From positions 1 to 64,000 of the IMG/VR virus record IMGVR_UViG_3300021255_000109: DNA of 64,000 nucleotides. The stretch is one strand, 5' to 3'. Position 1 is the first letter of the stretch. The number at the start of each line of letters is the position of its first letter. This DNA comes from a virus. Its lineage: Duplodnaviria; Caudoviricetes. Under the pieces are notes generated by a model, which saw only the letters and a list, made by a program, of their open reading frames with translations, was not told the origin of the DNA and did not search any database. Shown here piece by piece: positions 352 through 61,316 of the stretch. The position numbers were made by a program, and so were the translations under genes.

Positions 352-3300
352 ATGGCACAATTAAAAGATCTTTTAGTCGCTGGGCCATCAAGATTTATTG
401 GAGATATGTTTGGAACTAATCTCCAAATTACTAAGATTAATGCACTTACTGCTGCGAATGGTACTACATATGGAATAGGTAGTGCAGGATAGGCTTTATG
501 CTCAAATGGAACTTTTGTATATTGGGGTTATCCAACAGCAGGAACTTATGAACATAATCATGATTCAGTATATCTTAAATTAAATGGCACTAATAATATG
601 ACAGCTGATGTGAATGTTATTTTAGGTGATACTGATAAGTTTGTAAATTTTTGGTACAATACTAATAAAACCGCAGGCGCATCTTGGCGTATTGGCGCAT
701 TAGGTTCTGGACAAAATGATGCTAATTATTTTGTTATTCAAAGCGGAACGAGTACTACTTCTTCAACTACTTGGACAAATGCAATTCGCATTGGCCAAAA
801 TACATATGATATAGCTACTAGCGGTAATATTTATCCTTTAACTACTGCGGCAAAGAATTTAGGAACTTCTTCATTACGATGGAGTAATATTTATGCAGAT
901 ATACTATTTGGTACAGCTAAGCATGCTTCATCAGCAGATTGGTCTACAACAGCTCAATCAAATAGTGGCGTATTAAAAGTAAAAATAAATAAAAAAACTA
1001 ATTGGATGCTTGCTTTTACTATAAGAGTATATCAAGGTTATTAGTATACAGATTATGCTATTAGTGGTTATAATTATGGTACAAGTCATTGGTATTCACC
1101 TGCAGCAGTTATTTTAGGAAGTACTGGTACAGATAAGAAGACAGTTACTTTTGGATATGATGATGATGCTTCTAATTCATATTGTACTTTATGGGTTTCA
1201 ATACCAAGTGGTTCTTATACTGGAGTAAGCGTTTTTAATGTAACAAATGGCTATGGTCAAATTCCAATTTATGATGCATTTGAAATTGTTAAAGAGGCTA
1301 CATCAACTGGAATAGTACAAACTACAGTTGATGCATATCGTCCTTGGTATAGAAATGAAACAGTAACTAATGCTACTAACGCTGCTAAAGCATATATTAC
1401 AGATACTACGCCTTCTAGTGCTACAAGTTATTATTTAACTTATGCTACTGGAAAAGGTGGAAACCAAGATTTAAGAGCAAATAATGGATTATATTATTAT
1501 GATACTGGAACAACAAGTTATTTAAATGTTGGTGACACGAGTAATAGTGGTGGATTAACTTTACATAATGCCAATGGTAAATATGGAGATTTAGTTACAT
1601 CTGCTTTTACAGCTAATAGAACTTTTACATTACCTGATGCTACTGGAACTATAGCTTTAACTTCAAGTAGTATAACTGGAAATGCGGCAACTGCTACCAA
1701 ATTAGCCAACGGCCGCACACTAAAAGTAAATCTTGCATCAACTTCAGCATCTACGGCTTTTGATGGTTCAGCCAATGTACATGATATTGGAGTTGATGGA
1801 GTTCTTCCTTTGGCAAATGGTGGAACCGGCAAAACTAATGCAAAAGATGCTGCTAACGTTCTTTTAAATGGATTAGAAACAGGTGCTTCTACTCCAGTAG
1901 ATGCAGATTATTATATATCTCAATATGTTGGTGGTGGTACTACTACGACAACATATCATAGACGTCCAATGTCTGCGCTTTGGGCATATATAAGTGGTAA
2001 AATAACAGCGAATAGATAGGCGAGTGGAACAGCTGGAACTTTAGCTTATTATTCTAGTGCAGATAAAATTTCTTCTCATCCAAACATTCAAACGACTGGT
2101 GGACATTTATTCCTCGCAGGTTCTAATGCTTCATCATCAACTGCAAATACAACTCAAATTGTATTTGGAACAAGTGCTTCTTAGCATGTTGCACTTTCCG
2201 CAAATACTGGTGCATTAATAATTAATCCTACTACATCTTCTACTACTGGATAGATCATATTAAGTACAAGTAGTGTTAGTACATTTAATGGCGGTGGAAT
2301 TACTGCTAATGGAGCGATTACTGCTTAGACAAATATAGCTGCAGGACCAAATAGTTAGTTATTAACATTAACAAATAATAGACCTGCCGCAAATATAGCT
2401 GTAAATCAGTGGTTTTGGGGAAGTGATTTCTTAGTACCAAATGCAGTAGATAATACTAATATGTGCCATGTATTTGGAAAAGCTAACTCTAATAAAAATA
2501 GTGGAGTTATAAATTTCCATTATGCTGGCAATGCAAGTGATAATAATTATACTGGTTTAGGTGTTTATGGTTTTGAAGATTCTTTAAAAGTATTTGCTAA
2601 TAAAGATGTTGCAATAGCAAAAGCATTAAGAATTCCAACTCAAACATCTGGTTTTATAGATGGAATTTAGTTTCTTAATGGCACAACTAAAAAAGGTAGC
2701 TTTGGTTGTGATCATAACGGAATACTTGCATTATATAGTGCTAGTAAAGTTGCTATTAGACCAGTATTAGATGCTGCTACTGATGGTGTTGAAATTATAA
2801 CAACATCCATGTATCCTACTAAAAATCAATATATGACATTAGGTACTTCTAGTTTATATTGGGATGGAGCTTATATTCAAGGTAATGGTAATATACATTG
2901 GAATAATTTGACAAAAGTTAGTGGTAAAAGTATTATTACAACAGATATTAATAGAGGACTTCCAAGAATTTTATCAAATAATGATATAAATGTCCATGGT
3001 GCTGGTAGTAAGCTTTGGGGTTTATCTCCTGCATCTATAATGGTAGAAGTAACTGATGATAATGGTGCTACTTGGACAGAGAATACTTCATTAACAGATA
3101 CTCAAAAGAGAAACTTAACAAATGGATATTTTCTTAATGGAGCAAATTGTGCGGTAGGAGGACTTGCCGCAGATGCTGGTTCTGGTAATACTTCTCCTAT
3201 GACTGTTGGTATGGGCCAAAGAATTACATTTGATTTTTAGGTTGAGCATAGATTTGGATGGATAGAATGTCTTTTAATATATTTTTATTGTAGAAGTTAG

Positions 3301-6300
3301 ACTTGTTCATATTTAATAGAAAGATGGAGTAAAAATAATAATACTTGGAAAACTGTTATTGATACAACATCAGTAACTGGTAATAATTATCGTGTTATTT
3401 ATCCAGATGTTTCATTTTATATGAACGGTAATACAAGTAGTAGTGCTTCATCTTATCCGTAGTATTGTAATAAGTTAAGAATTACTTTTATGGTAACCGC
3501 AGTAAGTTCTCAAAGATATGGTGCTCATATAGGATTTATTGCAGGTTGGGGAAGCGGAGTTGCATCACACACTAGATCTGCTACTTATCCAAGTGGAAGA
3601 CTATTCGATATAACTATGGCTTAGTATGGTTTACCAATGTATTTAGATGGTGAATCTGGTAGAGGCATAGGAAGATTGCTTATGCCATTAGAGAGACTTC
3701 ATATCTATGGTAATGGTGGATGGTATGATGCTGATGTTGCTAATTATGCAGATTTATATATTGGAAATAGCGGTAATATTACTGCTGCAGGATAGCATGC
3801 ACAAGGAAGAATATTCCTTTATTGTAAAAATACTACATATACGACAATATAGAATTCTGATACATATCCATAGCCAGCTAATAGAAATTTAATTATTGGT
3901 CCTTAGAATCTTAGCAATGCTTATATTGTTTCTTATTAGAACTCTAATGGAACAGCAGATGCTAATACATTATATGATTTAATTTTATATAGTAATACTG
4001 GTAATAAATTAGCAAATGCGCCAAAAGGTTATAAATATGGACAAATTCTTACACTTCCGTATAGAAAAGGATTTGGAAATACTATTCCTGATTATGCAGC
4101 ATAGGTTTATATACATGGTGGGTCAACCGTATCAAATTAGCTGTTTTATAGAACAAGTACTGCTAGTGCTTGGAATGACTGGCAAGAAGTTGCTCATATT
4201 ACTGCCAATGTCGCCGTCGGAAGTTCAGTTTTACCAGTATATGTTGCTGCCGATGGAACAGTTACTGCAATTACTGCTTTATCAATGCCATCTGGTCAAA
4301 GTGTTGATATAAATGGAGGAAATCTTAATTTAAAACCGCCAAGCAGCTCTTCTAATGACAGTGGAGATATTGTATGGTGGTATGGTGGCGGACAAGAACA
4401 AGCTCGTATATTGGTAGGTAGCGGTGGTGAAACAACATTTTCTCCATTATATCGTTGTTATAGTTCTGCTGGTACTCAATTAATTTCTGGAAGGCTTATT
4501 ATTGGTGCTTCTGCGGGAGTCGGCAGTACAACTTAGCCAATTTATATTGATAGTGCAGGTGAAGCAAAGTCTACTTCTTATGCTCTAAATGCAACTGTTA
4601 ATTCTAGTACAACTAATTATATGACCTATTATAGTGGGGCTAATGCTGTTTCTGGCACAGCTGCGGCTTAGATGATAGACGGATGTTTAAATCTTCATCC
4701 AACATCTGGAACATATAGAGAAGGCATTAGAATTTATCCAACTGGTAACTGGTCTACTATTGTATTATTAGGAAATGATCATAATAATGCTACTTCTGGA
4801 ACTAGTGCTAATACATGGGGTTTTTACAATAATAATGGGAAAATTTATATTTCTCGTAATGCAAGTACTAGCGGAACATATATGCTTTATCATGATGGCA
4901 CTAACTGGGGCGTTAAAGGACATTTTACTCCAAATGCTACAAACACTTATACATTAGGAACTACATCTTTAAAATGGGCAAATGTATATGCTACTACTTT
5001 TACTGGTGCTTTAAGTGGTAACGCAACTACGGCAACTACATTTCAAACTGCAAGAACTATTTGGGGTCAATCTTTTGATGGTAGTGCTAATGTTACCGGT
5101 AATATGACTGGTGTTGGTTCATCTATTAAATTAATTTCTGGATAGACAGGCTTTTAGTTTTTGACCTCTGCTGGAGGTGCGGCGACTGGTAGCTTTGGTA
5201 AATTAGGACTTAATAGTACGTATGCTAATATTGATTTTACTAATTATGTATTAGATGTAAATGGCGCAACTTATATTAGAAGTACAACTGATTCTACTTC
5301 TGCTACTACTGGAGCAATTAGAATTGATGGTGGAATAGGTGTTGCTAAAAATATCTGGAGTAATGGATTTATTAAATCTAATGGATTTACTTCTGATACT
5401 ACTGTAACAAATAATGTATTTAAGCCAGCCATTACAATATATCCAAGTAATTCTAATGAAATTAATTTTGGCGGTTATTATACTGGTAATAGAACTATTC
5501 ATTTTGGATATAGAAAAGTAAATGATCGTGAAATTCCAACTGCTTATGATTTCGGGCCATATAGTCAAGTAAGACTAGATGTTGGCGAAGTTGAAGCTGG
5601 AACTACAAAAGAAACTTATATTACTCTTGGTAATAACAAAGCTACATCAGAAGCTAATAATGGTCGTGGTAGAGTACGCATGTATGGTACTAATGCTTAT
5701 TATAGTGATATTATACCTGTTGATTAGACAGCAAATCGTGCATATTATTTAACGCAGTCTCCAGTTGCAAGTGCTTATTTATTATCTTATCATGTATCAA
5801 ATGGTGATTTAAATACTATTTATGATGCTGGAATGTTTACTGGAACAGGTAGTGCTACTAATGGCCTAAATAGTGATGGAAAATATTATTCAATATTATC
5901 AGTACCTTATAATAAAGCTGGCGGTAATACTGCTCCTAACTGGGGATGGTAGTTAGGTACTAACACTAATAATAATGACAGTCTTTATTTCCGTTTATCT
6001 AACGCAAGTGCATGGAGGGCTTGGCGACAAGTTGTTCATATTGCTAAAGATACTGGTTTAGGAAGTGGAACAAAACCAGTTTATGTCGCTAATACTGGAG
6101 CAATTACTGAATGTTCTTCATATGCGGGCGGCACTGCTGTTACGCTAAATAATGCGTCAAAGGCAGCCTCAACAGCTAGCTTTTATGCTCCAACTGCAGG
6201 AGGCGCAAATAATACTCAAGCATTAGTTGGCGCAGGAACTACAACAGCTCCTAAATGGGTAAATATTTCTCCTTCAAGCGCATGGACAGCTGGTACCACT

Positions 6301-7446
6301 GCTGGACCTTCATTAAAAGTAACTGTTTTAGGATAGACTCAAGGCACTGGAGCTGCGATACCGGCTGCTAGCGCCACAGCTAGTGGTGTTGTACTAGCAA
6401 CAACTGGAACCACAGAACAATGGTTTAAAGGTTGGAAAGGTATTTATAACGAATATGCTCTTGACCAAGGTACAACTGCCATTAATGCAAATGCTTGCGC
6501 ACGCTTCATGCTGAGATGTAAAAATACAACTACTGGTCATAATGGTGGCACTGGCGTAATTCGTTTATTTAATAATAATCAAGCAGATGATAATAATGCT
6601 ACTATGACAATAGATTGCGCAGGCGATTTATATATCGGTGGTGGCGAAGCTCCGTACAATGTCTTAGTTGCTAAAGGTATTACAAATGGTGAAAATATGT
6701 ATATAGTTACAGATGCAAATACTTTTATTGAAAGTAATGCAGGAACAGCGGCCAATAGAATTGGTATAGTAATTAATACATCTGGCCATTTATATCCACA
6801 AAAAGCCGAAACAAATAATAGCGGAGCGCAAGATCTTGGTACTGCAAATTCAAGATGGAGAGCTTTATATGTAAATACTATAGATATAAGTCAATTCCAT
6901 GCCGGCCACTATGCTGCTAATACCGCTCAATCTATTGAAGGACAATGTGGAGTATGCGGTGGCTCAGGAACATTATATCTGTATTCTCAAACTGCTGTTA
7001 ATAGTCATAGAGGATTATATGGTTGTAATTCTGCTGGAACTAACGCAGGTTATCTTACTATCAATAAAGACAATAGAATTAATGGTCTTGCACCATTTGA
7101 ATTGACAAGTAGCTCTTGGTGGGATCAAAGAACTCATGCTAGAATTAGATGTGATATGTCAACAGGTAATAATATATTATATCCACTTTGGTCTATGTTA
7201 ACCGTACATGGAAACTGGGCATTAAGTACTTATAGTGTAACTGCAGATCCGGATAGACTATTGTTTACCTATATTACAAATGACCAGTTTAATGCAGGCA
7301 CTAATCCATCATCATTTCCTTCAATTACATTTTATCCTGATGGAACAATATTTAATTCAGGATATTATCGTACTACTAAATATGGAACTAGTGCGCCAAC
7401 TGCAACAGCTCCAAATGGTAGTTTATATTTTGTGTATAAAGCATAA
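352..7446 (+). CDS. Large tail fibre / receptor-binding protein, ~2364 aa when TAG is read through
   Basis: All track fragments (598, 1810, 2461, 2809, 4285, 4672, 5161, 6508) share frame 1 and are separated only by TAG (about 26 counted), with no TAA/TGA until 7444. Fibre-type motifs GNAATATKL..R, GQSFDGSANV, LGTSSLRW and GS.T.PVYV are present. Confidence 0.9.
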
Positions 7447-8259: not shown

Positions 8260-8331
8260 ATGAATATGATTGTTAATGATTTAAATGTAGCTATTAGTTT
8301 TATTATTTGCCCATTATTTTATATTGAATAA
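8260..8331 (+). CDS. 23-aa leader/small ORF (MNMIVNDLNVAISFIICPLFYIE)
   Basis: Strong GGAGG RBS just before ATG at 8260; overlaps the start of the radical SAM frame. Confidence 0.4.
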   Translation: MNMIVNDLNVAISFIICPLFYIE

Positions 8332-9538
8332 CTTTGAAAAACTTATAATTTATCTTTCTTCTTCTTGTAATTTGTAGTGTAAATATTGTCATATGCGCGA
8401 TTATAAGGGGGAGGAAATAAATTATCCTTTTAATTACAATATTTATATCAATAAATTCCTTGAATTAAATAATAATAATGCGGAAAGCTTAAAAATAATA
8501 GAATTATGGGGCGGCGAACCATTATTAGGCATTTAGGGATTTCTTGATTATTTACCTAAATTTTTGACAACATTCCCTAATTTAACAGATTTTTTTATTT
8601 CTTCAAATTTTACAGTACCAAATAGCGCAGAATCTATTATAAGAATTATGTCATTATTACATACTTATGGTAATCGTAATAAAAATTATTGTATTCATTT
8701 ATAGATTTCTATTGATGGATAGCCAGAAATTAATGATTATAATAGAGGAGAAGGCTCAACATAGAAAGTGCTTGATAATTATAATCAATTAGTTTCTTTA
8801 ATTGATAAATATACTAATATATATTCAAACGTTCATATCTCTATTAGAACGAAATCAACATTAGTGCCTGCTAATTTTGAAGATAGAGATGAAGATGAAT
8901 TATATGCTAATGTAAATTTTTTACCAGACTTGTTTACTGATTGGCTGAATTTCTTTGTTAATAATTTTTATAACCCAAATATAGATATTAAATGTAACTT
9001 ATTTTCTTGTCAAAAAAATCCTGATAATGGTGGATGGTATTATCCATATGCGCTCAATTACGCATATGCATTAGATATTGTAGACAAATGGAAAACTACA
9101 CATCCAGAATATGATTCATTTTTTATTTATACAAAATATTCTACTAAAAAAATTGAATTATGTGAAGTAGGATAGTTTAATAAAGTATTGGCGTTATTAC
9201 CATCGGGCGAGCGCACATTATGTTATCGTTCTATTGCTGATAATGTGGTATTAGATGTAAATAAAATGTCTAAAAGTATAAACTTATCGGAAGTCTATAT
9301 GATACTTATGAATAAATATTATTCTGACAAAGATATGCAAGAGTATATAAGTGAATAGGATTTTAAAAAATCAATTCCAATTTATTTAATGCGGAATTGG
9401 TGTCCTTATGAACATTATAAATCTCCATATTTATCCAATCCTTGGTTTTTTGAAGAATTAGAATTGTTATATTATGGAGCTATGAATATTTTATTGAAAT
9501 GGAGTGAAGAAGATGGATAGAATGGAATTAATAGCTAA
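8285..9538 (+). CDS. Radical SAM protein, ~417 aa (about 9 TAG read through; start could be TTG at 8324)
   Basis: CNL*CKYC (CxxxCxxC), WGGEPLL and L*ISIDG motifs lie in one frame interrupted only by TAG. Confidence 0.85.
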
Positions 9539-9944
9539 AGTCTTTGAGCTTTGTATTTTTCCACTGTTGGGCATTTTAACTGCTTATATAATTCAAGTAA
9601 TTAAAATTAAATCAACAGAGTTAGCCACAAAGACTGACAACGCGTTATTGAAGAAGTATATAGATATGCTTTCTACGACAGTTACAAATTGTGTAATTGC
9701 AACCAATTAGACATATGTAAACGCATTGAAAGATAAAGGTGAATTTGACCTAGAAGCGCAAAAGAAAGCATTTCAAATGGTATATCAACAAGTAATTAAA
9801 ACATTGTAGGGCGAAGCGTATGATTATTTAAATTCTGTTTATTCAGATTTAAATGCTTATATTAGTACAATGATTGAAGTACAAGTTAATCAATATAAAT
9901 ATACACCAATAGTTACACCATCTAAGGATGGAGTTGTATTATAA
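9513..9944 (+). CDS. Holin-like membrane protein (LL-H-like family), 143 aa (2 TAG)
   Basis: N-terminal TM segment; IATN*TYVNALKDKGEFD matches the family motif TNQTYV..LK..G.FD. Confidence 0.75.
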
Positions 9945-10558: not shown

Positions 10559-11035
10559 TTAATCTCCCCAATTAAAGCCAACATCTTTATTTACATAATA
10601 AGCACCGATACAAATCGCATCTGCCTCATCTTGTGTAACTTTTTTATTATATGTCTCTTTGACATATTGCTAAGCATTTCTTTTCTATTCTGCGCGAGTT
10701 CGTCCTTTTATTCCCAAACCGGACCTCCACGTATTACAAGAAATTATCTTGTAGTTAACTCCAACTAGCTCTACTGCCAATTCTTCTAATACGCCGAGGA
10801 CTTCTCCAAGAATTTTTAGTGTTTCGGCATTATTTTGATATTGCACATTCTCTAATAGAATAGTATCAATATCATAATCCTATACCATCTACTTTACTTG
10901 TGTGCGCAAAGCATATAAACGCTAACCAAACTCATCGTCTTTAAGCGGAATCAATCCGCTTTTAATTAACTTTTTATCATCAAAAATTGAGTATCCTGAT
11001 ATGTGACTGGCTTGATCTAAGGCCAGCACTCTCAT
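10559..11035 (-). CDS. ruvC: RuvC-like Holliday junction resolvase, 158 aa (5 TAG); missing from the ORF track
   Basis: MRVLALDQASHISG..., LLENVQ and QDEADAICIG acidic RNase H-fold motifs. Confidence 0.85.
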
Positions 11036-11577
11036 GATGTAGATCCAAAGCCTCCAATGCGCTCTGCGGTCTGGTTATCATCTTCTACTGTATAATACTT
11101 ATGAATAATGCCCTGTGCGAGACAATCTCCTTTATGAATCTGAATGGGGAAATAAGATAAATTTATTAGCTGTAAAAAGATTTCTCCTTCATTAGAAGGA
11201 TTATTATAATAATCAGCATCTATAATACCTACACTATTAGCTAAAATCAGCCAGTCTTTCAGTGGTGTCGAACTGCGCACAGACAATTCCAAATATTCAT
11301 CATTAGCTAATTGTATTTTCATTCCAGTAGATACTAAAGATGGTCTCAATCCTTTCTCTTTAGTAAAGTCTGCTAATTCTTTAATAGTGGTAGGCTTTGA
11401 ATAACTAAAACCACGATCAACTAATCCAAATCTAATCTAAGTGTTTAGATCTGAATATGCAGGAATTATAAAATCCTCCGCCGCGCACAAATCATACCCA
11501 GCTGAGTGCGCCGTGGCACGTGTGGGTAATGTTAAACCAGCATCTTTAAAACGAGAAACAATTTCAAATTTTGCCAT
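11032..11577 (-). CDS. dut: Trimeric dUTPase, 181 aa (1 TAG)
   Basis: SAGYDL, RSS, GIIDADYY, AQGI and RIGGFGST motifs. Confidence 0.92.
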
Positions 11578-13147: not shown

Positions 13148-16100
13148 TTACTCCATATATCCAGTGTGTTTTACTCTATGATGTACTTCATCTTGTTTTC
13201 CAAGGTTGAAAGCTGTTGAATAATTACCTGTTAAATAACCTGTAACTCTTCTTAACTGTTGGATTTTTGCGCTTCCGCACATAGGGCATACGTTATTAAA
13301 TTCTCCAGTGTAACCGCACTCTAAGCAAGTGTCATTTGGAACATTTACCGCGAAATACGGTATATTATGATCCATTGCATAAATAACAACTTCTTCTAAA
13401 GCATCTATATTCTTAATAACAGAAGATTCTAATTCTACATAAGTAATACATCCAGCAGAAGAATAACCAGTTAATTGTGACTCAATATCAATTTTATCAA
13501 ATGGACTGATTTGCTTCCACACTGGTACGTGTATAGAATTAGTAAAGAATTCTTTATCAGAAACATTAGGAATAACTCCATATTTATCTCTAAATTTCTT
13601 TAATGCGGTATAGCATAAATTCTCGGCAGGAGTATAATAAACACCAAAATTTAATCTATATTCTTTTTTAAAAGCGGCGCACTTATTTCTAAACATCTCC
13701 TCGATATGCTTTGCTAGATCCATGCCTTCTGTTGTGGTATGATCTTTACCAATTAATATTTGTAGTGCTTCAGCAAGGCCTAATTGACCCAGTGCAAGCG
13801 TTCCATGCTTCAGCGCACTTTCAATACCTTCTTGAGGATGATAGCCAGCCATTGTATTATTTTCATACATGAAACGTGCGCTACTCATTGGTTGGCTGCA
13901 AATCCAGCGGTATCTTTCAATGAGCATGTCTTTTGCATCGTAAATATATTTTTCCAATAGATTCATGAAGGCATCAATTAAATCTTCTCCAGTCTCTTCA
14001 GCAATTCCTTTTGCTTGCATGGCTACAGTTGGAAGGATAATGGTGACAGGGCATATATTACCGCGTCCGTCCTTGCGCTGTCCATTAACTCCTTTTTCAT
14101 GGTTAATATCAAATCCGTTAGCTGTTCTACACATATAAATCTTATATTACTATAAGTACTGACTATATCTTCTATTATAATAAATATTATAATAGTCTCG
14201 CGCTTGGAACTGGTGCTTATCTCCAGTCCTACTCGGCTACATTCATCACCGATAGTCGATACACATTTATTTGGACTTTTTAATTGTATAATCTTTAATA
14301 TATTCATCTTGTTCATAAGCGATTAACCAAGTATTTTTGTATAAACATTTTACTTGTTTTAAGCATCTTCTTGAAATAAATTGATGATTTGTTTCATTAA
14401 AAAATGCTTGCATTTCTGATTGACTATCAAAATGATATTCTTCATTTGTGTAAATGTTTTTACATTTTACTCCTGTTGCTCTTGGATTTTTTCCGCCTAA
14501 TTTTGATTGACGAATTTTATTTCCAATTTGTTTTATTTCTTCAGGAGTTTTGCTTTTATAAGTATTACCGCCACATTTTGATATTGCATCAGTTTCATTA
14601 TAACCAGTATTAACACTATCATAATATTGAATCCAATATTGTTCTTTTTGTGTTAATTCTTCTTGAGTTGTTGCTGTATCAATAACTTCTGCTTTAAAAT
14701 TATCTATACCATAATATCTTATTGCTCTTGCAAAATGAGTATCTAATATATTATTTAAAGCATCATTTTTATGACGGTTAAATCGCTAAGATAAAGAATT
14801 TATTGTTTGACCAATATAAACTTTATTATTGATTAAATTAGTAATTTTATATATTATCATTATAACGCCTCCAAAACTGTTCTACATATATTTAAAAATT
14901 GTGCGGCACAGTTTTGGATGTTTTGTCCAAAATTTAGCACGGATCTCGCCCTAATAACACAGCTATAATATATTAGGGTCTAACCGTTAGCACGCCATTA
15001 AGCGCACACCCTTTAAGCAAGGTTCACGAGATTTTAAATGGAGCGTTTTACACTTCCCATTGTGCTGAAATATGTTGTGGGATCATTTTTGTCATACCCA
15101 GCGTTTCCTGACCAGTCTACATTCGCATAGTTAGGATATAATCGTTTGGCTGTAGAGACGAGAGCTAATCTAAATAAATCGTAATTTGGGTCGCCATATC
15201 TTTTATTTACTCCTTCCATTACTTGGAAAATACCACAAGGGAAAATACTTGTTTTATGAAGTGCGCCAACACCTTCAATAGAAACATCTAATAGGGCTTT
15301 AATAATCATTCTTCCCTCTGGCAAAGTACAAGTGCCATAGTTAATAGAAGTAAATGGAAGTTGATTACCGCTTCTTGACTGTAAAGTATTTAAATTATGA
15401 TATAATCCTTCAACAGCTTGATGCACTTCTCTTTGTGTCATATCTAAAGCATATTGATAAGCCTTTTTAAATAGCATATATTCTGGCGCATCAATACTCA
15501 TTTCTTCACAAGGACTCCATGTATCAATAACGGCATCTCCTGTATCTTTTTCATATGACAGCTGTTCAATATAATGCATCCCATCTTTAAAATGCTTACG
15601 GAAGCTTTTTCTTACATATGGCACCATAGTCCAATCCAAGTGAGTCGCAGAAACGCCACCAAACTGTTGCAAACTTTGAAGTTGGAAAATTACAGCAACT
15701 AATTGAAAAGCTGTACCAACAGAATTGGCCGGGCGCACATCGGTTTGTCTGGTATTGAACCCTTTTGCTAATAATGAATCAAAAGGTATAGATAAACAGT
15801 TGTGCATACCTACTGCATATGCATCTAAATCATGAATATAAATTTCATTGTTTAAATGATGCTGTTTTGCCATAGGAGAAATTAAGTTTTCAAGCGCATA
15901 TGCTCTTGTCATTACTCCTGTTGCTTCGCCCATGCGCCCGCCAAAAGAATGTTCATCTACATTAGCATTTTGATTTTGGACATTACGTGCTTCCAATTTA
16001 TCTTTAATGGCATCAAAGAAATCAGTTTTAATTCCTCTTGCGACTTCTTTCTTGTATCTATAACGAATATAAGCTCTCGCTACGTCTTTGCGCTCAGAAC

Positions 16101-45913: not shown

Positions 45914-45937
45914 CCTTTCTTATAATCTTTTTCATAT

Positions 45938-45978
45938 GAATATAAAAAGCGTGTAAGATATTTTATTGATTTTTGGCC
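45938..45978 (-). promoter_or_regulatory. Putative late promoter GGCCAA-N24-TTTTTATATTC heading the PhoH-lysis block
   Basis: Motif match with the 24-bp spacer. Confidence 0.6.
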
Positions 45979-46403: not shown

Positions 46404-46567
46404 AAAAGTAAACTCCTTTAATTTAATCTTTCTTATATTATACTAAAAAAAACGAAAAAAATCAATTTGTGCCATTTTCCCAAAAAATTACCATAGGCGA
46501 TCTCAAGGGCTGCAACGGCCGCTAACGCTGGTCATGGTAAAGAAAAAATCTCAGCTTGCGCTGAGAT

Positions 46568-47119
46568 TTAAACCTGAAATCGTGGGTGTGTTTTGATATC
46601 ATTCAAAATAGTATCAAGACTAACAGGTGTATTATTATGTGCATCAAGTTCTGCATGATAAACAATGCCCAGGTCAATATCTTTCCATTTGTCAGTAGTA
46701 TGAGAATGACCGCACACATTGATAATTCTGGCTTTAAGCGGCTTATCAACGTCATAATTAGAACACAGTGTAGGAAAATGAGAAAAATAAAAATGATAAC
46801 CTTTATATTTTAATCTATAAGCCAGCTCGACAGAATCAACATTCCATGATGACAAATATAAGATTTTTCTTGCCTCAGAATCATGATTACCAAGAACGAT
46901 ATGGATTTTTCCTTTAAGCTGATGCAAACACTTCATACCCTCTACATTATCATTTAGCATAACATCGCCAAGAAGATATACTTCATCATCTGGTTGAACA
47001 ACACTATTCCAATTTTTGATAATAGCTTTATTCATATCCTGTACAGTCTCGAACCCGCGCGGTTTATATAGAAATTCTTGCGTATGACAAAAATGCGTAT
47101 CAGACGTTACATAAATCAC
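46568..47119 (-). CDS. Calcineurin-like metallophosphoesterase
   Basis: SDTHF, LGD, GNHD and GHSH motifs. Confidence 0.9.
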   Translation of the reverse strand: MIYVTSDTHFCHTQEFLYKPRGFETVQDMNKAIIKNWNSVVQPDDEVYLLGDVMLNDNVEGMKCLHQLKGKIHIVLGNHDSEARKILYLSSWNVDSVELAYRLKYKGYHFYFSHFPTLCSNYDVDKPLKARIINVCGHSHTTDKWKDIDLGIVYHAELDAHNNTPVSLDTILNDIKTHPRFQV

Positions 47120-47592
47120 TCAGGCACCTCCACATATTTTACATCAAAGATTTTGTTTTCATCTTCCTCAGGACGCTCAAACTGAAACCACATACGACGT
47201 ATAGCTGATGCAGGAACTCTAGCAAGTCCCGAACGCTTGTTATTACGTCTTAAGGTCTCAGCCAATGACGGCCGCACAACAACCACAGTAATATTGTCAA
47301 CATTAGACAAATCTAATGCATTTAATACCTTATCACGAGAAGCTTTGGTGATATGAGTCGCATCTGCATAGATGTCAATCGGGGTTTCATCGCTATCAAT
47401 GGACTCCTGGATGTAACGTATAAAAGTCTTAAAGACTTCTTTCTCTTTTCCGAAATAGTCATCTTCATCTGTAATCATACTAAAACGAATTGCATCACGA
47501 GAAATAACATACGGTTCTTTTACATGCTTGCGAATCCACGTACTTTTGCCCGATCCGGGTGCTCCACACATAATATATAAATTATGCTTCAT
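47116..47592 (-). CDS. P-loop polynucleotide-kinase-like protein
   Basis: GAPGSGKST, ISRD.IR, DAT, R...R...VP motifs. Confidence 0.85.
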   Translation of the reverse strand: MKHNLYIMCGAPGSGKSTWIRKHVKEPYVISRDAIRFSMITDEDDYFGKEKEVFKTFIRYIQESIDSDETPIDIYADATHITKASRDKVLNALDLSNVDNITVVVVRPSLAETLRRNNKRSGLARVPASAIRRMWFQFERPEEDENKIFDVKYVEVPE

Positions 47593-48308
47593 TACTCTAC
47601 CTCCTGTGAGTTGCTGAATAGGTTAATTACTTCTAATGTATCCAGATTCAATAATACAGTGCAATTCGTATAAAAAACACCATTATCAATATTGATTTTA
47701 TGCCCATTACAATATGAAAAAGCCATAGGTAATGTTACTTCAATATCTTGCTTTTTCGCATATAAAGTATCTAAAAGATATTCCATTGGAGTATGTCCAT
47801 GAACACAGATATCTTTAGGGTATGTATCCTCGTCCCATTTATCAAAAAAATGTGAACGATTCCAAAGCAATTTATCACTCTGTATCTCATCTTTGCGACC
47901 GCACGTAAATCCTGCATGAGACAAGTGAAATGTAGTGCCTTGACTATTAGTATATTGAGCGGTTAATGGAAGAGTATTTATACGAGATATCCAAATCGGG
48001 TCTGCGCCATCTTGTTTCCAGCTTCGATATGTTTCAAATCCACCATTATACATCCATAGTTCAAAACAATCTTGCAACTTTCTCTTCGCTACCTTCTGGC
48101 TTAAACCCCATACCATCAAATCTTCATGATTGCCCTTTAAATAAATCCATTGGGGATTCTCATATATAGCCTTAATAGTACGCCAACCATGCGGGCCTCT
48201 ATCACCGGCATCGCCCAGAAAATATACTTTATCTTCTGGCTTTAATATTTTGCATACCTGTTCATATATATCATACATGCCGTGAATATCGGCTATCGCG
48301 TAGTTCAT
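47592..48308 (-). CDS. Metallophosphoesterase (Ser/Thr phosphatase/ApaH-like)
   Basis: ADIHG, GD..DRG, GNHE, HAG and HGHTP motifs. Confidence 0.9.
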   Translation of the reverse strand: MNYAIADIHGMYDIYEQVCKILKPEDKVYFLGDAGDRGPHGWRTIKAIYENPQWIYLKGNHEDLMVWGLSQKVAKRKLQDCFELWMYNGGFETYRSWKQDGADPIWISRINTLPLTAQYTNSQGTTFHLSHAGFTCGRKDEIQSDKLLWNRSHFFDKWDEDTYPKDICVHGHTPMEYLLDTLYAKKQDIEVTLPMAFSYCNGHKINIDNGVFYTNCTVLLNLDTLEVINLFSNSQEVE

Positions 48309-48319
48309 TTTAGTCCTCC

Positions 48320-48694
48320 TTAAAATACAATCACTCGTGATGTTGGCTTCCATGCCATATGTATATAATCAGTTTTATCCTGTTTAACTGCATCAATATC
48401 ATCCCAGACATGGCTATCATAAATAATAAAATCATTTACGTATTCCCACAATTTATATCTGATTTCATAATTATCAGTATAAAATCTACTATACTGGCCA
48501 GTTTTCTTATCTCTGATATCAAGCATCATTTTTAAATAACCACCAGAATTATCGTCAAATCGTTCGAACTCAGCAGCCCACTGATGCACATAAAAGCGAC
48601 CTTTCCAAAGCTCATCCTGGGCCAAATTACGATTTAAGGCATGAATAATTTTACTGCATTTCTTTTGCATACGTTTACGCAGTTTATCTCTCAT
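48320..48694 (-). CDS. Hypothetical protein (start MRDKL)
   Basis: First ORF after the promoter at 48726-48754. Confidence 0.7.
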   Translation of the reverse strand: MRDKLRKRMQKKCSKIIHALNRNLAQDELWKGRFYVHQWAAEFERFDDNSGGYLKMMLDIRDKKTGQYSRFYTDNYEIRYKLWEYVNDFIIYDSHVWDDIDAVKQDKTDYIHMAWKPTSRVIVF

Positions 48695-48725
48695 ATATTT
48701 TTCCTCTTTTCTATTTTCTATAAAT

Positions 48726-48754
48726 ATTATACCAAAAATTTTACAAAAAATCAA
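48726..48754 (-). promoter_or_regulatory. sigma70-type promoter module, nearly identical to 53262-53290
   Basis: TTGATT-17-TATAAT. Confidence 0.75.
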
Positions 48755-48780
48755 AGGCGGTCTTTACACCGCCTTTACTT

Positions 48781-49317
48781 TTACAAAGATTGAAATTCAA
48801 ACTCTGCGTCATATTCATTAATCCATTTTTGTAATTTTTCAGTAAATCTGGAATTACTTTCTGACTTATATATTTCTTTATAAGCTGCTTCTCTGGCCTT
48901 ACTCATGCAAGCCCCGCAATAAACAGAGCCAGCCACACCAATAGAAGTTGGTACAAAATCATAATGAAATGCGCCTCCAATAGCGCCCGTTTTGAGTAAT
49001 CTCTGTTCTGCAGTTGTTGCATTATGTTGTTTCGCCAAATGCTGCTCTTCCCAATCTGCTATTGCTTTTGCTTCTGAAGCGCTAATTGGGAAACCCCTAT
49101 ATGCATCTTCACGAACTGCTTTTAATTCAGCTTTTATCTTTTGTAATGTTTCGTCTTTCCACTTTTCAGCATTAAGTTTTTCCATTTCTGCCCGAGCAAA
49201 TTCTGCTTGGCGCTCAGCCGATTCAATACGCTCACGAATACTATCACAGATTTCATCAACAGTGGCTATATCCATAAACTTACCATTTACATAAGTAGAA
49301 TATCTCCCTTTAGACAC
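48781..49317 (-). CDS. Hypothetical protein
   Basis: Coiled coil followed by GAIGG..Y.F.PTSIG...C. Confidence 0.7.
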   Translation of the reverse strand: MSKGRYSTYVNGKFMDIATVDEICDSIRERIESAERQAEFARAEMEKLNAEKWKDETLQKIKAELKAVREDAYRGFPISASEAKAIADWEEQHLAKQHNATTAEQRLLKTGAIGGAFHYDFVPTSIGVAGSVYCGACMSKAREAAYKEIYKSESNSRFTEKLQKWINEYDAEFEFQSL

Positions 49318-49504
49318 TTTTTAGCACCTCCATAATAGCGCATGTATGTTTATCTTCATCCCAAATCATACATTCGGTTTCAATGCAGGGTAAAAAATCC
49401 TCTTTATATTTTGTGTCTACTACTGCTCCATTTCCCGCAAAATGATAATTAACCATTTCAGTGCTTTTGCGCAAAGGACACAATTTATCAATTGTAGCTA
49501 TCAT
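49310..49504 (-). CDS. Small Cys-rich protein
   Basis: CP...C....C..W......C. Confidence 0.6.
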   Translation of the reverse strand: MIATIDKLCPLRKSTEMVNYHFAGNGAVVDTKYKEDFLPCIETECMIWDEDKHTCAIMEVLKSV

Positions 49505-49517
49505 TTTATTCGCCTCC

Positions 49518-49991
49518 TCAGTTTAGAACTTCTTTTTGCTGGAGTCTACCTCGCTCAACAAATAGATTCATAAATGAGTGATATCCAACATTAAGAAAAT
49601 CTTTTCTGCTGATATAATTAGCGCAGCATCCTCGCATCATAACGCTATAATCTGTATCGCTTTCTTCCATTTCAATGATAAGAACTTTTTTGCCTTTTCC
49701 AAAAGCATAGCCGCACTCCCATGCGGTGCCAGCTGTGCCATTACGACCATAATCGCATACCACAATCCAATCAGAATTGTCAATAGCAACCACATCAAGA
49801 GCAAAAATGCAACGCGCCCATTCCTGAATCGACATTCCCCATGCATTAGGTACTCCATGTGATTTAGGGTCATAGAATGATAATGTATCATGGCTTTCAA
49901 GACATTTAAAAATATTTCTAATTTCATCAACTTCTTTTTCGACTTTCTCAGAGATTCCTACAATGGGGGCTGCAAAATAAATTTTTATCAT
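49518..49991 (-). CDS. Nucleoside 2-deoxyribosyltransferase-like protein
   Basis: IYFAAP, D...ID.SD and GTAWECGYA..KGK motifs. Confidence 0.85.
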   Translation of the reverse strand: MIKIYFAAPIVGISEKVEKEVDEIRNIFKCLESHDTLSFYDPKSHGVPNAWGMSIQEWARCIFALDVVAIDNSDWIVVCDYGRNGTAGTAWECGYAFGKGKKVLIIEMEESDTDYSVMMRGCCANYISRKDFLNVGYHSFMNLFVERGRLQQKEVLN

Positions 49992-50167
49992 TTATATTTA
50001 TTTAACTCCTTGTTGATATATTTCAACATATTCAATATATAATCATATGCGGCAAGTATGTCCTCAGTTTCCATTACCAAGTTACACTTGCCGCAATCTC
50101 TGTCGCAATCTCGACTGACGCACTTGCGTTCAATCGAGAGAATATCAATTGCTTTCGGTAGTGTCAT
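49988..50167 (-). CDS. Small Cys-rich protein, 59 aa (below the track cutoff)
   Basis: MTLPKAIDILSIERKCVSRDCDRDCGKCNL...; stop overlaps the next start. Confidence 0.55.
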   Translation of the reverse strand: MTLPKAIDILSIERKCVSRDCDRDCGKCNLVMETEDILAAYDYILNMLKYINKELNKYK

Positions 50168-51518
50168 TGTTTACCTCTTCTGCTTCTTCGATATCAGGAG
50201 CTTCAGCGTCAGCCTTAGCGATACCTTCAAGGCATTTAAAACTAAAGTTCTTATGCTTGTAAGCAGTAAACTTTGGTTTATTTACGATACGAATGACTAC
50301 GCCTTCGCGCACATGACTTAATCCGATAGGGTCGGGCCCATCATAATAGCGCTCAGCAATCATACGAACATATTCTCCATAAGACATATCTGTGGTTTCG
50401 CCGGTTTCAAGGTTAATACTTACGGGTTTATTCTTTTCAGTGATATAACCCTGCCAGAAAACTGGTACATACTGACATCCAATCTGCTCGCAACGATAGC
50501 GCATATAATCAGGAGTATATTCTACGATATCTCCATCTTCATTAGTCATAGTCATACGGTAAACATAAAACTTAGACTGGCCAGGCTCGCACCCATAAGA
50601 GAAAGTTGTAGTTTTGCCATATTTCTTTATAAACTCTTTATCTTTTGTCTTTGAGTTATCTACAGACCCCATAATTGGAGTACCAGTATCGGTAAATCCA
50701 ACTACTTCATAGTAAACCTCTTCACCTTTATGAAGCTTTCCTTTGAAGAAGTCTGCGTGCGGCTGGCGGAAATGATTAGACCCATAGAAACCAGATTTGA
50801 AGTCGTTCAGTACAGTTCTACGAGTACCAGTCACATAGCCCCAATCATAGATAGGAGTTCCTTCTTTTCTGGTAATTCTATCCCAAAGAGTTCTTTTATA
50901 TCCCTGGAATACTGGCAGGTATCCAGTACGCTGAGAAGTTCCGTGCATTTTCAAAGTGATTTCAATTAAATCACCCGCTTTGAAAGCATCCAGATTGTAA
51001 GCAAGCTGCTCAGTATCAGCGTGCTCAACAAACAGAGGCGCCAGTGGCACCTTGCGCTTTCTTACGCGATTTCCCTCTTTACTATTGCCAGCAACTTTAA
51101 CTGGTTTCATTGGAATGTACTTACGACAAATTTCGTGGCCATTGATAACAGTAATAGCTTCACCCGGAGTAAAAGACCCAGCACTATCTCCAAGGTAGTT
51201 AAAGCAAGAGATAGGAAGATATAATCCATCAGATTTCTCGCCACGGAGTTTAATTGTAGTTACATTTCTCTTATCAGGGTCCATATAACCACCAATATTA
51301 GCGCCATTCTCATCTTTCTTTCTTACCAGATTATTAGCCTCACAGAATTCTGTAGAAAGCTGCAGGTCAGTTGGAAAATAGATACCGATGTCTCCTACCG
51401 CAACATCCAAAGAAACACAAGTATCATTACCAAAAAAAGTAGCAATCTGAAGCTTATCTGCATTAGAATGCGGGCGAAGATGTTCAACTTTTACAATATA
51501 TCCACAATGCTCACTCAT
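50145..51518 (-). CDS. ATP-dependent RNA ligase (Rnl2/DRB0094-like) with an N-terminal OB domain
   Basis: HSNADKL, LRGEKS.G, TLKMHGTS (motif I), YYE, EGVVIR and KHK motifs. Confidence 0.85.
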   Translation of the reverse strand: MSEHCGYIVKVEHLRPHSNADKLQIATFFGNDTCVSLDVAVGDIGIYFPTDLQLSTEFCEANNLVRKKDENGANIGGYMDPDKRNVTTIKLRGEKSDGLYLPISCFNYLGDSAGSFTPGEAITVINGHEICRKYIPMKPVKVAGNSKEGNRVRKRKVPLAPLFVEHADTEQLAYNLDAFKAGDLIEITLKMHGTSQRTGYLPVFQGYKRTLWDRITRKEGTPIYDWGYVTGTRRTVLNDFKSGFYGSNHFRQPHADFFKGKLHKGEEVYYEVVGFTDTGTPIMGSVDNSKTKDKEFIKKYGKTTTFSYGCEPGQSKFYVYRMTMTNEDGDIVEYTPDYMRYRCEQIGCQYVPVFWQGYITEKNKPVSINLETGETTDMSYGEYVRMIAERYYDGPDPIGLSHVREGVVIRIVNKPKFTAYKHKNFSFKCLEGIAKADAEAPDIEEAEEVNNDTTESN

Positions 51519-52344
51519 TCTTATCCTCCTTCGGCATAATTATTTTCCATGTTTTATCCATATACAAGGTATTTCCGTTGATAGCTTTTAAAATTCTATT
51601 TTTGATTTTAGTTTTATCAGCTCGCTCTCTATCTGCAACATTTATATGATTGACCGCATATGAAACAGCTTTATGCAATCCCTGAAAACTCTTAATAAGA
51701 GTTGTACCAGATTTGTTATACATTTCAACAACGCACTCTGACCAGTCTGGTTTATCAGTTTGAGTGGTTATTGTTGGCTGAGCAGAAGCGACTGTTTCAT
51801 ATTCTGGGAAAGGGTGTCCTGTTACAATCTCTTCATTTGATACATGCTCAAAAACTTCTTTTAAAAAACGTGCATCTTCAAGAGCATCATGAGTCTGTAT
51901 TACAGACTCTTCATTTCTATAATAAGCAACAAGCTTAATTAAAGAAATATGTTTAGCCAAGCCAAAATGAGCTTTTACAATATTGCTATAATCATACAGA
52001 TTCATAGCAATTAGTGATAAAGCGGCCTGAGCAGCAAAAGAATTTGTTTTAGATAAATTCTTTCTAATAAATTTACTATCAGATGTGCCATAACAATAAA
52101 ATGTTACAATGTCATCTTCTGTATGTGCACATAACCACTGAAAAAATTTACTAAACACCTCATCTGAGGTTGGTGCGGTCTGACGCACCTCATCTGTAAT
52201 ACCTGTTAAAGAAGTGATAAAGCTGGTGATTTTCTTCTCAGACCGCACATAACTATGGAACTCATCACCCTTTTCGCTTATACATCCAATAGAAATAATC
52301 TCATTGGAAAATTGCGTTGCTTCGAAGTCAATAAAAAAATTCAT
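51511..52344 (-). CDS. DEDDh 3'-5' exonuclease with a C-terminal extension
   Basis: IDFEAT, LTGI and HDALEDA motifs. Confidence 0.85.
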   Translation of the reverse strand: MNFFIDFEATQFSNEIISIGCISEKGDEFHSYVRSEKKITSFITSLTGITDEVRQTAPTSDEVFSKFFQWLCAHTEDDIVTFYCYGTSDSKFIRKNLSKTNSFAAQAALSLIAMNLYDYSNIVKAHFGLAKHISLIKLVAYYRNEESVIQTHDALEDARFLKEVFEHVSNEEIVTGHPFPEYETVASAQPTITTQTDKPDWSECVVEMYNKSGTTLIKSFQGLHKAVSYAVNHINVADRERADKTKIKNRILKAINGNTLYMDKTWKIIMPKEDKNE

Positions 52345-52357
52345 AATTTTCTCCTTT

Positions 52358-53218
52358 TTAGTCAAGATACTCAGCCAGTTTCTTACTGCGGATAGGACTT
52401 CTCAGCTTACGCATTGCCTTCTCTTCTATCTGTCTAATACGCTCACGAGTCACATTGTATACCTTACCAATTTCCTCAAGGGTCATCGGTCTTACGGCAT
52501 CAATGCCAAAGCGCATTTTGATAACTTCAGCTTCACGCGGCTCAAGTGTCGCCAGAGCGGCCATAATCTGATTATGACGCTCTTCCTTGACAATGTTATT
52601 GTAAGGAGATTCAAACTTATCGTCAGCTACAAGGTCTCCCATTGTAGCATCTTCATCATCGCCCACCGGAACATCAAGGGACAGAGTCTCACGAGAAAAA
52701 TCCCAGATTTCATATACCTTGGATGCGTCAATTTTCATAAACTTTGCAATCTGCTCGGCAGTAGGAGCCTGCCCCAGCTTCTGCGTCAGTTCAGAAGTTG
52801 CCTTCTTAACTTTACTCGCGAGGTCAATCATATGTACTGGAATACGGATTGCTTTATTCTGTTCAGCTAGTGCACGACCGATTGCCTGACGAATCCAATA
52901 AGTTGCGTATGTTGAAAATCTAAAGCCTCTGGAGGGGTCAAACTTCTCTACTGCTTTCATCAGCCCAATAGAGCCTTCCTGCACAAGGTCAGCAAAACTC
53001 AAAGACGTACCATTGTACTTTCTGGCGATAGAAAGCACCAAACGCAAATTGCGAGTAATTAATTCTTCACGAGCGGTATTATCTCCATGCTGGACTCTTG
53101 CAACAAGAGCCTTTTCCTCTTCCTCAGAAAGAAGTTCATAATCTCCAAACTGACGAACCATTAATTTAACAGAATCAATGCTTACATACTTATCTTCGTT
53201 AATCACAACTTCTTTCAT
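52358..53218 (-). CDS. RpoD/SigA-like sigma-70 factor (regions 1.2-4)
   Basis: NLRLV.SIA.KY, DLVQEG.IGL.KAVEKFD, FSTYATYWIRQAI, IRIPVHM and TRERIRQIE motifs. Confidence 0.93.
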   Translation of the reverse strand: MKEVVINEDKYVSIDSVKLMVRQFGDYELLSEEEEKALVARVQHGDNTAREELITRNLRLVLSIARKYNGTSLSFADLVQEGSIGLMKAVEKFDPSRGFRFSTYATYWIRQAIGRALAEQNKAIRIPVHMIDLASKVKKATSELTQKLGQAPTAEQIAKFMKIDASKVYEIWDFSRETLSLDVPVGDDEDATMGDLVADDKFESPYNNIVKEERHNQIMAALATLEPREAEVIKMRFGIDAVRPMTLEEIGKVYNVTRERIRQIEEKAMRKLRSPIRSKKLAEYLD

Positions 53219-58863: not shown

Positions 58864-58970
58864 TGATTTTTTCCTTTCTTTCATTTTCTATAAATATTAT
58901 ATCAAATTTTTTAGGAAAAATCAATTTGTTATATTTTTATCTGGTATATACTCTTTTATAAAATTAATAG

Positions 58971-59053
58971 AGGCGCAGGTCAGATTCGAACTGACGATAA
59001 CTTACGTAATTGGTTTTGCAGACCAACGTCTTTAACCACTCGACCACTGCGCC
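58971..59053 (-). tRNA. tRNA-Cys(GCA) with an atypical 14-nt variable region
   Basis: Cloverleaf GGCGCAG/CTGCGCC; anticodon loop CTGCAAA; T loop TTCGAAT; U73. Confidence 0.85.
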
Positions 59054-60461: not shown

Positions 60462-60470
60462 TTCAAAGAG

Positions 60471-60543: not shown

Positions 60544-60631
60544 AAATCCGAATTTCTTTTTAATGTTAAAATTCGGAAACAATCATAGGGGGTTATTTTA
60601 GGGGAAAACAGATAAAGGAAATAAGTTATCG

Positions 60632-60855: not shown

Positions 60856-60961
60856 AAGACGGCTTTTTAGTGCTGGAATCGAACCAGCTTAGATTGTTTT
60901 ACAGACAATGTGCGAACCATACGCTTAATATTCTAAAAAGAATGATTGCTGTATCCGCCTT
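60856..60961 (-). ncRNA. tRNA-mimic (Y-RNA-like) ncRNA
   Basis: D-, anticodon(GUA)- and T-like arms closed by CUUUUUAG/CUAAAAAG, then a 14-nt bulge and an AAGGCGG/CCGUCUU outer stem; promoter at 60980-61008. Confidence 0.7.
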
Positions 60962-61008
60962 TCTTTATCTTACATATATATTATATCAAAATTTTTATAA
61001 AAAATCAA

Positions 61009-61206
61009 TTAAAAATCGTCATAATTACTATTTTGTAACTTTTGTTTTTCTTTACGCTTTTGTCTATCTTTCTGTTCAATATTAGATTCTTTGCATAAAT
61101 GGCAATTGCCGCAATTTCTTCTATTATGACAAAACCAACAATAATCATTATCCCAAAAGAACCATTTGGGAGGACTAGGCAATGGTTTTCTTTCACTTTT
61201 ACCCAT
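61009..61206 (-). CDS. Small basic Cys-rich protein
   Basis: P.PPKWF...CWFC....C..C..C; AAGGAG RBS. Confidence 0.6.
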   Translation of the reverse strand: MGKSERKPLPSPPKWFFWDNDYCWFCHNRRNCGNCHLCKESNIEQKDRQKRKEKQKLQNSNYDDF

Positions 61207-61228
61207 CTTCAAAGCTCCTTTTATACAG

Positions 61229-61316
61229 CGGGGGTATTGGGATTCGAACCCAAACCGAGGCCCTCAGAAGGCTGGAGTTTTAGAGACTCCTGTGCTGACC
61301 GTTACACTATACCCCT
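61229..61316 (-). tRNA. Amber suppressor tRNA, anticodon CUA (probably Gln)
   Basis: Anticodon stem GGAGT/ACTCC with loop CT-CTA-AA; T arm TTGGG-TTCGAAT-CCCAA; A1/C72 mismatch, G2-C71, G3-C70, G73; 20-nt variable region. Confidence 0.92.

Follow-up and report, generated by a model that had tools for sequence, protein, structure and literature searches.

Ivanova 2014 and Borges 2022 are said to have described bacteriophages that use genetic code 15 and carry suppressor transfer RNAs (tRNAs). The reassignment of TAG to glutamine (Gln, Q) with phage-encoded suppressor tRNAs is already well established; proteomic proof of code 15 is reported for crAss-like phages (Peters 2022, PMC9523058), and phage tRNAs(CUA) have been reported as substrates of Escherichia coli glutaminyl-tRNA synthetase (GlnRS) (PMC12636597). 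Here, we analyzed the first 64 kb (referred to as the window) of IMG/VR record IMGVR_UViG_3300021255_000109, the genome of a large gut phage of the Caudoviricetes. This phage very probably belongs to the PolIII-alpha-encoding group that includes SPbeta, EF1, and phAss-1 and uses code 15, with a bias between gene classes. Its recoding is ordinary of its kind. The part worth an experiment is its suppressor tRNA, in which a hairpin in the variable arm carries a look-alike of the Gln anticodon loop, a natural case of which was not found in our literature searches.

The source record is a single contig of 180,778 bp with a GC content of 34%, rated 100% complete by CheckV and classed by IMG/VR as having direct terminal repeats; we found a terminal repeat of 107 bp. 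Its PolIII alpha shares 38 to 39% identity with that of Enterococcus phages VRE9/EF1, of SPbeta-like Bacillus phages, and of phAss-1, a phage from the human gut. phAss-1 represents, as its type, a published group of phages with recoded TAG, also called “Phassvirus” (PMC10607447). The likeness to that group extends beyond PolIII alpha (38% amino acid identity): TAG occurs in virion, lysis, and some DNA-enzyme genes, with the dUTPase and the holin named there as well; tRNA-Sup-CTA genes are present; there is no synthetase; and Clostridia are the suspected host (PMC10607447). The host of our phage is probably a member of the Firmicutes. phAss-1 has 136 kb and three Sup tRNAs, whereas this phage has 181 kb and one; the text of that paper mentions no long variable arm (PMC10607447). 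More broadly, the code-15 phages of the crAss-like, Lak, and Jade/Sapphire/Agate clades have in common with ours TAG at Gln positions, TAA and TGA as sole stops, a phage tRNA(CUA), a higher share of TAG in the genes for structure and lysis, and early genes that can be read under the standard code. Our phage differs from them in its PolIII-alpha lineage, the lack of a release factor 2 or synthetase gene, and a single, oddly shaped suppressor tRNA.

To compare codes, we measured coding density as the greedy cover of open reading frames (ORFs) of at least 80 amino acids. In the window, density rises from 72.3% under table 11 to 87.7% when TAG is sense, and it stays at 72.0% in the control in which TGA is sense; the genome-wide values are 62.0%, 86.0%, and 65.8%, respectively. 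This is the gain that the initial annotation, which had proposed TAG recoding from the letters of the window, expected of such a comparison. Reading TAA as sense likewise inflates density (82% in the window and 78% genome-wide) because TAA is the commonest stop in this AT-rich genome. The mean ORF length genome-wide rises for TAG as sense only, reaching 324 amino acids as opposed to 191 to 198 otherwise. TAG-sense ORFs in the window end in TAA (55 ORFs) or TGA (22 ORFs) and in nothing else, which agrees with the earlier observation that no gene requires TAG as its stop. In total, 414 in-frame TAGs occur genome-wide next to 1,579 CAA and CAG codons, which gives TAG a share of 21% among Gln-type codons.

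In ten genes supported by Pfam, TAG is the only stop codon that interrupts the frame. On the plus strand, this is the case for a radical SAM gene (8285 to 9538) with nine TAGs, the first of which, at codon 2, may precede the true start. On the minus strand, they are a RuvC-like resolvase (10559 to 11035; five TAGs), a dUTPase (11032 to 11577; one), an SF1 helicase of RecD/Pif1-like type (20837 to 21994; one, at codon 102), a RecJ-like exonuclease (22513 to 24255; eight), an AAA_24 ATPase (28226 to 29218; four), a GIY-YIG endonuclease (31770 to 32741; four), an endolysin with ELLD and SH3 domains (41496 to 42587; one, at codon 78, in the context GYS*S, where the asterisk marks TAG), and an endolysin with lysozyme, amidase, and SH3 domains (42589 to 44337; six); a second GIY-YIG endonuclease is described below with nrdD. 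Two further plus-strand ORFs are likewise open through TAG alone: a holin (9504 to 9944; phrog_13712, E value of 3e-28) with two TAGs (TN*TYV and TL*GEA) and a tail-fibre-like ORF of 2,364 amino acids (352 to 7446), which has a weak PHROG tail-fibre match and contains 26 in-frame TAGs and no TAA or TGA. The claim that genes are interrupted by TAG and never by TAA or TGA is borne out by all 414 in-frame TAGs of the genome, and the five peptide contexts quoted in its support are all present: TN*TYV at 9702 (+), KRFV*P at 43557 (−), GYS* at 42365 (−), NP*VL at 22572 (−), and L*ISIDG at 8699 (+). The accompanying count of at least 20 interrupted genes is reached only by including ORFs in which TAG is confined to a doubtful N-terminal extension; about 14 are solid. 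The recoding matters mostly for annotation: table 11 leaves more than a third of the genome seemingly noncoding or fragmented and misses the tail fibre, the lysins, and many enzymes.

The decoder of these codons was previously placed at 61229 to 61316, and both ARAGORN and the Rfam tRNA model (55.2 bits) recover an 88-nt tRNA with anticodon CUA there, on the minus strand. It is the sole CUA tRNA among the 33 tRNAs and one transfer-messenger RNA (tmRNA) of the complete genome, a result that stayed the same when introns were permitted and hairpins were scanned directly as well. Release-factor domains, catalytic domains of Glu/Gln-tRNA synthetases, and PylS are all absent from the phage genome. 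These results support the proposal that the phage supplies its own decoder. The anticodon arm is perfect, GGAGU/CU-CUA-AA/ACUCC (61274 to 61290, −; anticodon at 61281 to 61283), as placed by the Rfam alignment and the hairpin scan, and the remainder has the canonical 7/5 acceptor/T-stem layout, an A1·C72 mismatch, G73, G2-C71, G3-C70, G10, and a type-I D arm. While the CUA anticodon stands as annotated, the tRNA is not an ordinary one, in that its long variable arm copies the Gln anticodon loop. The variable region comprises 21 nt and holds a 13-nt hairpin, GCC/UU-CUG-AG/GGC (61260 to 61272, −), with CUG at 61265 to 61267. Its 7-nt loop consists of a U33-like U, CUG, and then a purine, as in the anticodon loop of tRNA-Gln.

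The E. coli GlnRS identity set comprises U35, G36, A37, G73, a weak 1-72 pair, G2-C71, G3-C70, and G10, of which the acceptor and core elements are partly common to tRNA-Trp. The suppressor contains the acceptor and core elements (G73, an openable 1-72 pair, G2-C71, G3-C70, and G10). Its anticodon has U35 but A36, and a U-G in the right loop register is found only in the variable-arm hairpin. The 5′ half of the suppressor resembles the phage's own tRNA-Trp (82%), and positions 6 to 42 are 94 to 95% identical to a Bacillus phage tRNA-Trp and to the “tRNA-Gln” (CUA) of crAss-like phages cr7_1 and cr124_1. None of the GenBank phage records covers more than 47% of the suppressor. The cr7_1 tRNA (72 nt; NC_055895.1, 9123 to 9194) has the same anticodon arm and 94.6% identity over positions 6 to 42; it differs in having no variable-arm hairpin. 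By these similarities, the suppressor belongs to the phage Gln-suppressor family represented by the crAss-like tRNA-Gln.

To see how widespread the hairpin is, we scanned IMG/VR with a pattern that set only the CUA anticodon loop, a long gap, and a common T loop, leaving the variable arm free. This returned 50 loci with 31 distinct long CUA tRNAs, 21 of which have one of the 7-nt loops CUCUGAA, UUCUGAG, CUUUGAA, CUCUGAC, or UUCUGCA (20 under a stricter 3-bp closure). At position 34, the mimic varies between C and U alone, giving CUG or UUG, each of which is a Gln anticodon. Pairing is kept at the three closing positions of the stem in 21/21, 21/21, and 20/21 tRNAs, and the first pair covaries among CG, GC, AU, and UA. 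All of these tRNAs, which we call two-headed, have a weak or mismatched 1-72 pair, and all have G73 except that of locus L012 (A73). The remaining long CUA tRNAs are Tyr-, Leu-, or Ser-like, with G1-C72, A73, or other arms, and lack a Gln-type loop. The tRNA of our window fits the two-headed class in its CUA anticodon, its NU-YUG-AN loop on a GCC/GGC stem, its weak 1-72 pair, and its G73. Because the cr7_1 tRNA-Gln is almost identical to the long tRNA of L012 minus the hairpin, the long form is the usual Gln suppressor of phages into which a hairpin has been inserted. GluRS/GlnRS domains are likewise absent from five other complete phage genomes that have a two-headed CUA tRNA; all five share PolIII alpha with our phage at 34 to 68% identity.

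A scan of the same kind with anticodon UCA gave a second set. In all 17 distinct long UCA (opal) suppressors, U-CCA-A, the anticodon loop of tRNA-Trp, sits atop a stem of about 5 bp that covaries. Among 144 other long tRNAs in the same loci, which served as controls, there is one YUG loop and one CCA loop, and there are no cross cases: no CUA tRNA has CCA and no UCA tRNA has YUG. In ten loci (L010, L017, L027, L032, L033, L039, L048, L050, L051, and L054), a 75- to 78-nt type-I CUA tRNA adjoins the two-headed one; some phages thus keep both forms side by side. Our phage has two other tRNAs with long arms, tRNA-Cys(GCA) at 58970 to 59053 (−), which has 84 nt, U73, and an unexpected long variable region, and tRNA-Ile(UAU) at genome positions 80321 to 80413, which has 93 nt and a long arm with the loop CUAGCAA. 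The mimic idea was rejected for these two, as neither displays its own anticodon.

One reading, based on the conserved loop, is that the hairpin may be a working pseudo-anticodon: the side-arm loop would supply the G36-type anticodon signal that is missing from CUA (A36), so that the host's glutamine-charging machinery would accept a tRNA that reads UAG. Two points weigh against this reading. The stem has only 3 bp, and the variable arm of an L-shaped tRNA points away from where GlnRS, a class I enzyme, binds the anticodon; for these reasons of geometry and stem length, we hold it tentatively, at somewhat under an even chance. The alternative, to which we give nearly half of our credence, is that the hairpin is no identity element; it could instead be tolerated as an insertion, serve to stabilize the tRNA, act as a decoy that draws anticodon nucleases or modification enzymes, or give a phage protein a handle. 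Besides the unfavorable geometry for direct use by a class I synthetase, this alternative is favored by the many code-15 suppressors that work without a hairpin (the cr7_1 tRNA-Gln and the type-I CUA tRNAs beside the long ones in several phages) and by the phage's two further tRNAs with long arms that likewise lack an explanation. However, such a role does not account for a loop held at NU-YUG-AN while the stem covaries, for a position 34 that changes only from C to U, or for independent UCA suppressors that show CCA at the same place, without cross cases and against a background of 1/144.

Amber suppressors of E. coli offer a comparison for the tRNA body. In supE (tRNA-Gln CUA) and su+7 (tRNA-Trp CUA, charged with Gln), single-base mutations of cellular tRNAs yield suppressors that are poor GlnRS substrates. 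Like the phage tRNA, they combine the CUA anticodon with a body that has G73, a weak 1-72 pair, G2-C71, and G3-C70, and Gln is what they insert; the body here is also Trp-like; they differ in that the phage suppressor is a dedicated gene with an added Gln-type loop. For the hairpin, the nearest design is an engineered HisRS amber suppressor, in which the cognate anticodon arm was copied into the variable arm to recruit the anticodon-binding domain of the synthetase. That system is synthetic and worked only once a further anticodon-binding domain had been fused to the synthetase, whereas the design here is natural and the machinery would be provided by the host. This engineered case was the only one that our literature searches for pseudo-anticodon or two-anticodon tRNAs turned up, and the papers on phage suppressor tRNAs that we opened do not mention variable arms.

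If the pseudo-anticodon reading is correct, codon reading and amino acid identity would lie on two separate arms of one natural tRNA, phages would have reached the same solution for UGA-to-Trp suppressors with the CCA loop, and a single two-headed tRNA would suffice to decode 414 TAG codons. A natural tRNA that shows the cognate anticodon on a side arm would then be a new kind of identity element, and the two-headed design could serve as a principle for genetic code expansion. How enzymes that read the anticodon charge a CUA tRNA efficiently with Gln is a question for all code-15 phages, sharpest where hosts may lack GlnRS. The genome studied here is a clean test case, being complete, without a synthetase, and with one two-headed tRNA as the sole decoder for its 414 TAGs.

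We asked which amino acid TAG encodes by translating it as X and collecting homologues. In RecJ, codons 18 and 564 align with Q in 116/116 and 118/118 homologues, and codons 293 and 370 in 75% and 55%. Q also occupies codon 78 of the ELLD endolysin (108/113 homologues), codon 265 of the amidase endolysin (KRFV*P; 96% of 139 cluster representatives), and codon 140 of the radical SAM protein (15/20 homologues); in radical SAM fragments of close relatives called with the standard code, it is found at five or six of the nine TAG positions. A self-calibrated likelihood compared the homologue profiles of 20 TAG columns with those of columns where the phage has each of the 20 amino acids; Q ranked first (−48.7), followed by E (−56.4), K (−58.1), and S (−63.8), a lead of 7.7 nats over E. 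In a close relative that is 89% identical at the nucleotide level, the eight TAGs of RecJ correspond to TAG four times, to CAA three times, and to AAA once. Moreover, the base after sense TAG follows the pattern seen after CAG. The RecJ of that relative, the nearest homologue (P0002; 93% identity, with Q at 7/8 TAG positions), was dropped as independent proof, since its own gene translates only with TAG read as Q, and the comparison of codons took its place. For the amidase lysin, a search of the PDB for relatives that could tie a column to experiment gave none at an E value of 1e-5.

Given Q at the conserved columns, the likelihood ranking, the CAA swaps in the relative, and the CAG-like following base, the assignment of TAG to Gln can be considered settled as far as sequence analysis reaches. 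The Gln assignment proposed at the outset is thus supported, and the TAG columns, taken together, rank no other residue above Gln. That TAG encodes another amino acid (Glu, Lys, Ser, Leu, Trp, Tyr, or pyrrolysine) is very unlikely. K, E, or S prevails in some TAG columns, but the likelihood favors Q, four columns are 96 to 100% Q, and TAG swaps with CAA in the close relative. The tRNA itself might suggest otherwise: its 88 nt and long variable arm recall a Ser-, Leu-, or Tyr-type suppressor, ARAGORN labels it “Pyl,” and its 5′ half is close to the phage's own tRNA-Trp and to a Bacillus phage tRNA-Trp. Yet G73 argues against Leu and Tyr (A73) and the A1·C72 mismatch against Ser (G1-C72). A Ser/Leu/Tyr-type suppressor, which the adjacent tRNA-Ser also suggested, was ruled out by this discriminator and 1-72 pair, the type-I D arm, and TAG columns that are not S, L, or Y. 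The hallmarks of tRNA-Pyl are a 3-nt variable loop, a short D loop, the lack of G18G19 and TΨC, and the presence of pylS. The suppressor has G18G19 and a TΨC loop, both absent from tRNA-Pyl; these canonical GG and TTCGAAT loops, the 21-nt variable region, and the lack of PylS in the phage ruled out tRNA-Pyl.

TAG is not used evenly across the genome (chi-square of 263.6, df of 78, P value of 5e-22, genome-wide). Its share of Gln-type codons is 27 to 37% at 0 to 10 kb and 120 to 160 kb, the plus-strand tail-fibre and structural blocks, 22% at 110 to 120 kb, and only 5 to 14% at 10 to 60 kb. About half of the ORFs, all core replication genes among them, have no TAG. In the window, these are PolIII alpha (1,284 amino acids; 16896 to 20756, −; no internal TAG), DnaB, GyrA, GyrB, an NAD-dependent DNA ligase, both NrdD halves, and a minus-strand block (44391 to 53218) with PhoH/PIN, a phosphatase, an RNA ligase, an RNase H-like exonuclease, and a sigma-70-type factor; the small ORFs interspersed with the tRNA genes are all TAG-free as well. 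The TAG-bearing genes of the window are the tail fibre, radical SAM, holin, both endolysins, RecJ, RuvC, AAA_24, SF1 helicase, dUTPase, and homing endonucleases. Describing the recoding as genome-wide, as was done at first, therefore overstates it: core replication genes and the sigma factor are TAG-free and late genes are TAG-rich. Since the replisome core, NrdD, the ligases, the sigma factor, and the tRNA-cluster ORFs lack TAG, the host's standard code can translate them.

This distribution fits the published model in which early genes are readable in the standard code and late genes lie behind the suppressor (PMC10607447), although imperfectly. Early genes would be translated under the standard code, as would the tRNA cluster, whose own ORFs are TAG-free; host enzymes, whether GlnRS or the GluRS/GatCAB route, would charge the suppressor with glutamine; and the charged tRNA would compete with release factor 1 at UAG, unlocking the late genes. 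Two results count against our account of the phage as a whole. TAG-bearing genes (RecJ, RuvC, AAA_24, and the helicase) lie among the TAG-free replication genes, which blurs any simple division into early and late, and host searches in genome contigs with the ELLD lysin and with GyrA gave no match either time. The latter result leaves some room for a host that itself reads TAG as sense, which the phage would follow, with the tRNA as an accessory. We regard this as highly improbable, because about half of the ORFs avoid TAG wholly while TAG reaches 37% of Gln-type codons elsewhere, a split that would be expected only where TAG poses a risk at some point during infection. In addition, where hosts of code-15 phages have been studied, they use the standard code (PMC10607447). 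The weakest alternative, that the interrupted genes are pseudogenes or the TAGs assembly or sequencing errors, has nothing in its favor except the raw interruptions and can be dismissed, as all 414 interruptions inside conserved domains are TAG, with zero TAA or TGA, and four of eight TAGs are common to a relative from a different sample.

TAG may have kept a role near the ends of some genes. PolIII alpha ends in TAG-GTA-TAA (16896 to 16904, −), and five more genes end in TAG-NNN-TAA/TGA, all on the plus strand (genome positions 94022 to 94030, 116056 to 116064, 123323 to 123331, 127069 to 127077, and 171002 to 171010). TAGs within two codons of the stop number 6 versus 2.1 expected from CAA/CAG positions (P value of 0.02). 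These six ends may be tandem stops that work under either reading of TAG, and TAG may still act as a stop at the end of PolIII alpha. The terminal TAG is not conserved there, its relatives ending in TAA or TGA, but the stop of the two closest relatives falls within a few residues of the TAG in the window.

Several other features of the genome deserve mention. The TAG-free sigma-70-type factor (52358 to 53218, −) contains regions 2, 3, and 4 and lies inside the TAG-free block; it could drive the TAG-rich late genes, adding transcriptional to translational control. The nrdD gene is in two pieces on the minus strand, with Pfam NRDD positions 2 to 263 at 15034 to 16335 and 264 to 562 at 13148 to 14134; the GIY-YIG endonuclease gene between the halves (14267 to 14887) has two TAGs. 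No Rfam group I intron model matches the gap at E values up to 1, and nrdD may be a split gene rather than one with an intron.

The tRNA cluster holds further RNAs. No theta/HDV-like ribozyme was matched beside the suppressor by Rfam at E values up to 1. A sub-threshold partial tRNA match lies between tRNA genes at 60872 to 60925 (−; 24 bits, model positions 9 to 63), and an ROOL RNA (RF03087; 165 bits, model positions 303 to 574) lies at the edge of the cluster, where it is cut by the window end (63690 to 64000, −). Under the TAG-sense code, spurious long antisense ORFs run across the cluster (61166 to 62161 and 60870 to 61298, both +), one of them with 331 amino acids and nine TAGs, and code-15 gene callers could report these as genes. 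Beyond the window, three “tRNA-Leu” genes of 75 to 77 nt (genome positions 70522 to 70597, 71885 to 71959, and 74711 to 74787) lack the long arm that bacterial tRNA-Leu always has. Finally, the tmRNA is encoded at 62707 to 63008 (−; RF00023, 93 bits), for which ARAGORN reads the tag peptide ARYQYQMAA with TGA at its end; the presence of a ribosome-rescue RNA is noteworthy given that this phage interferes with termination.

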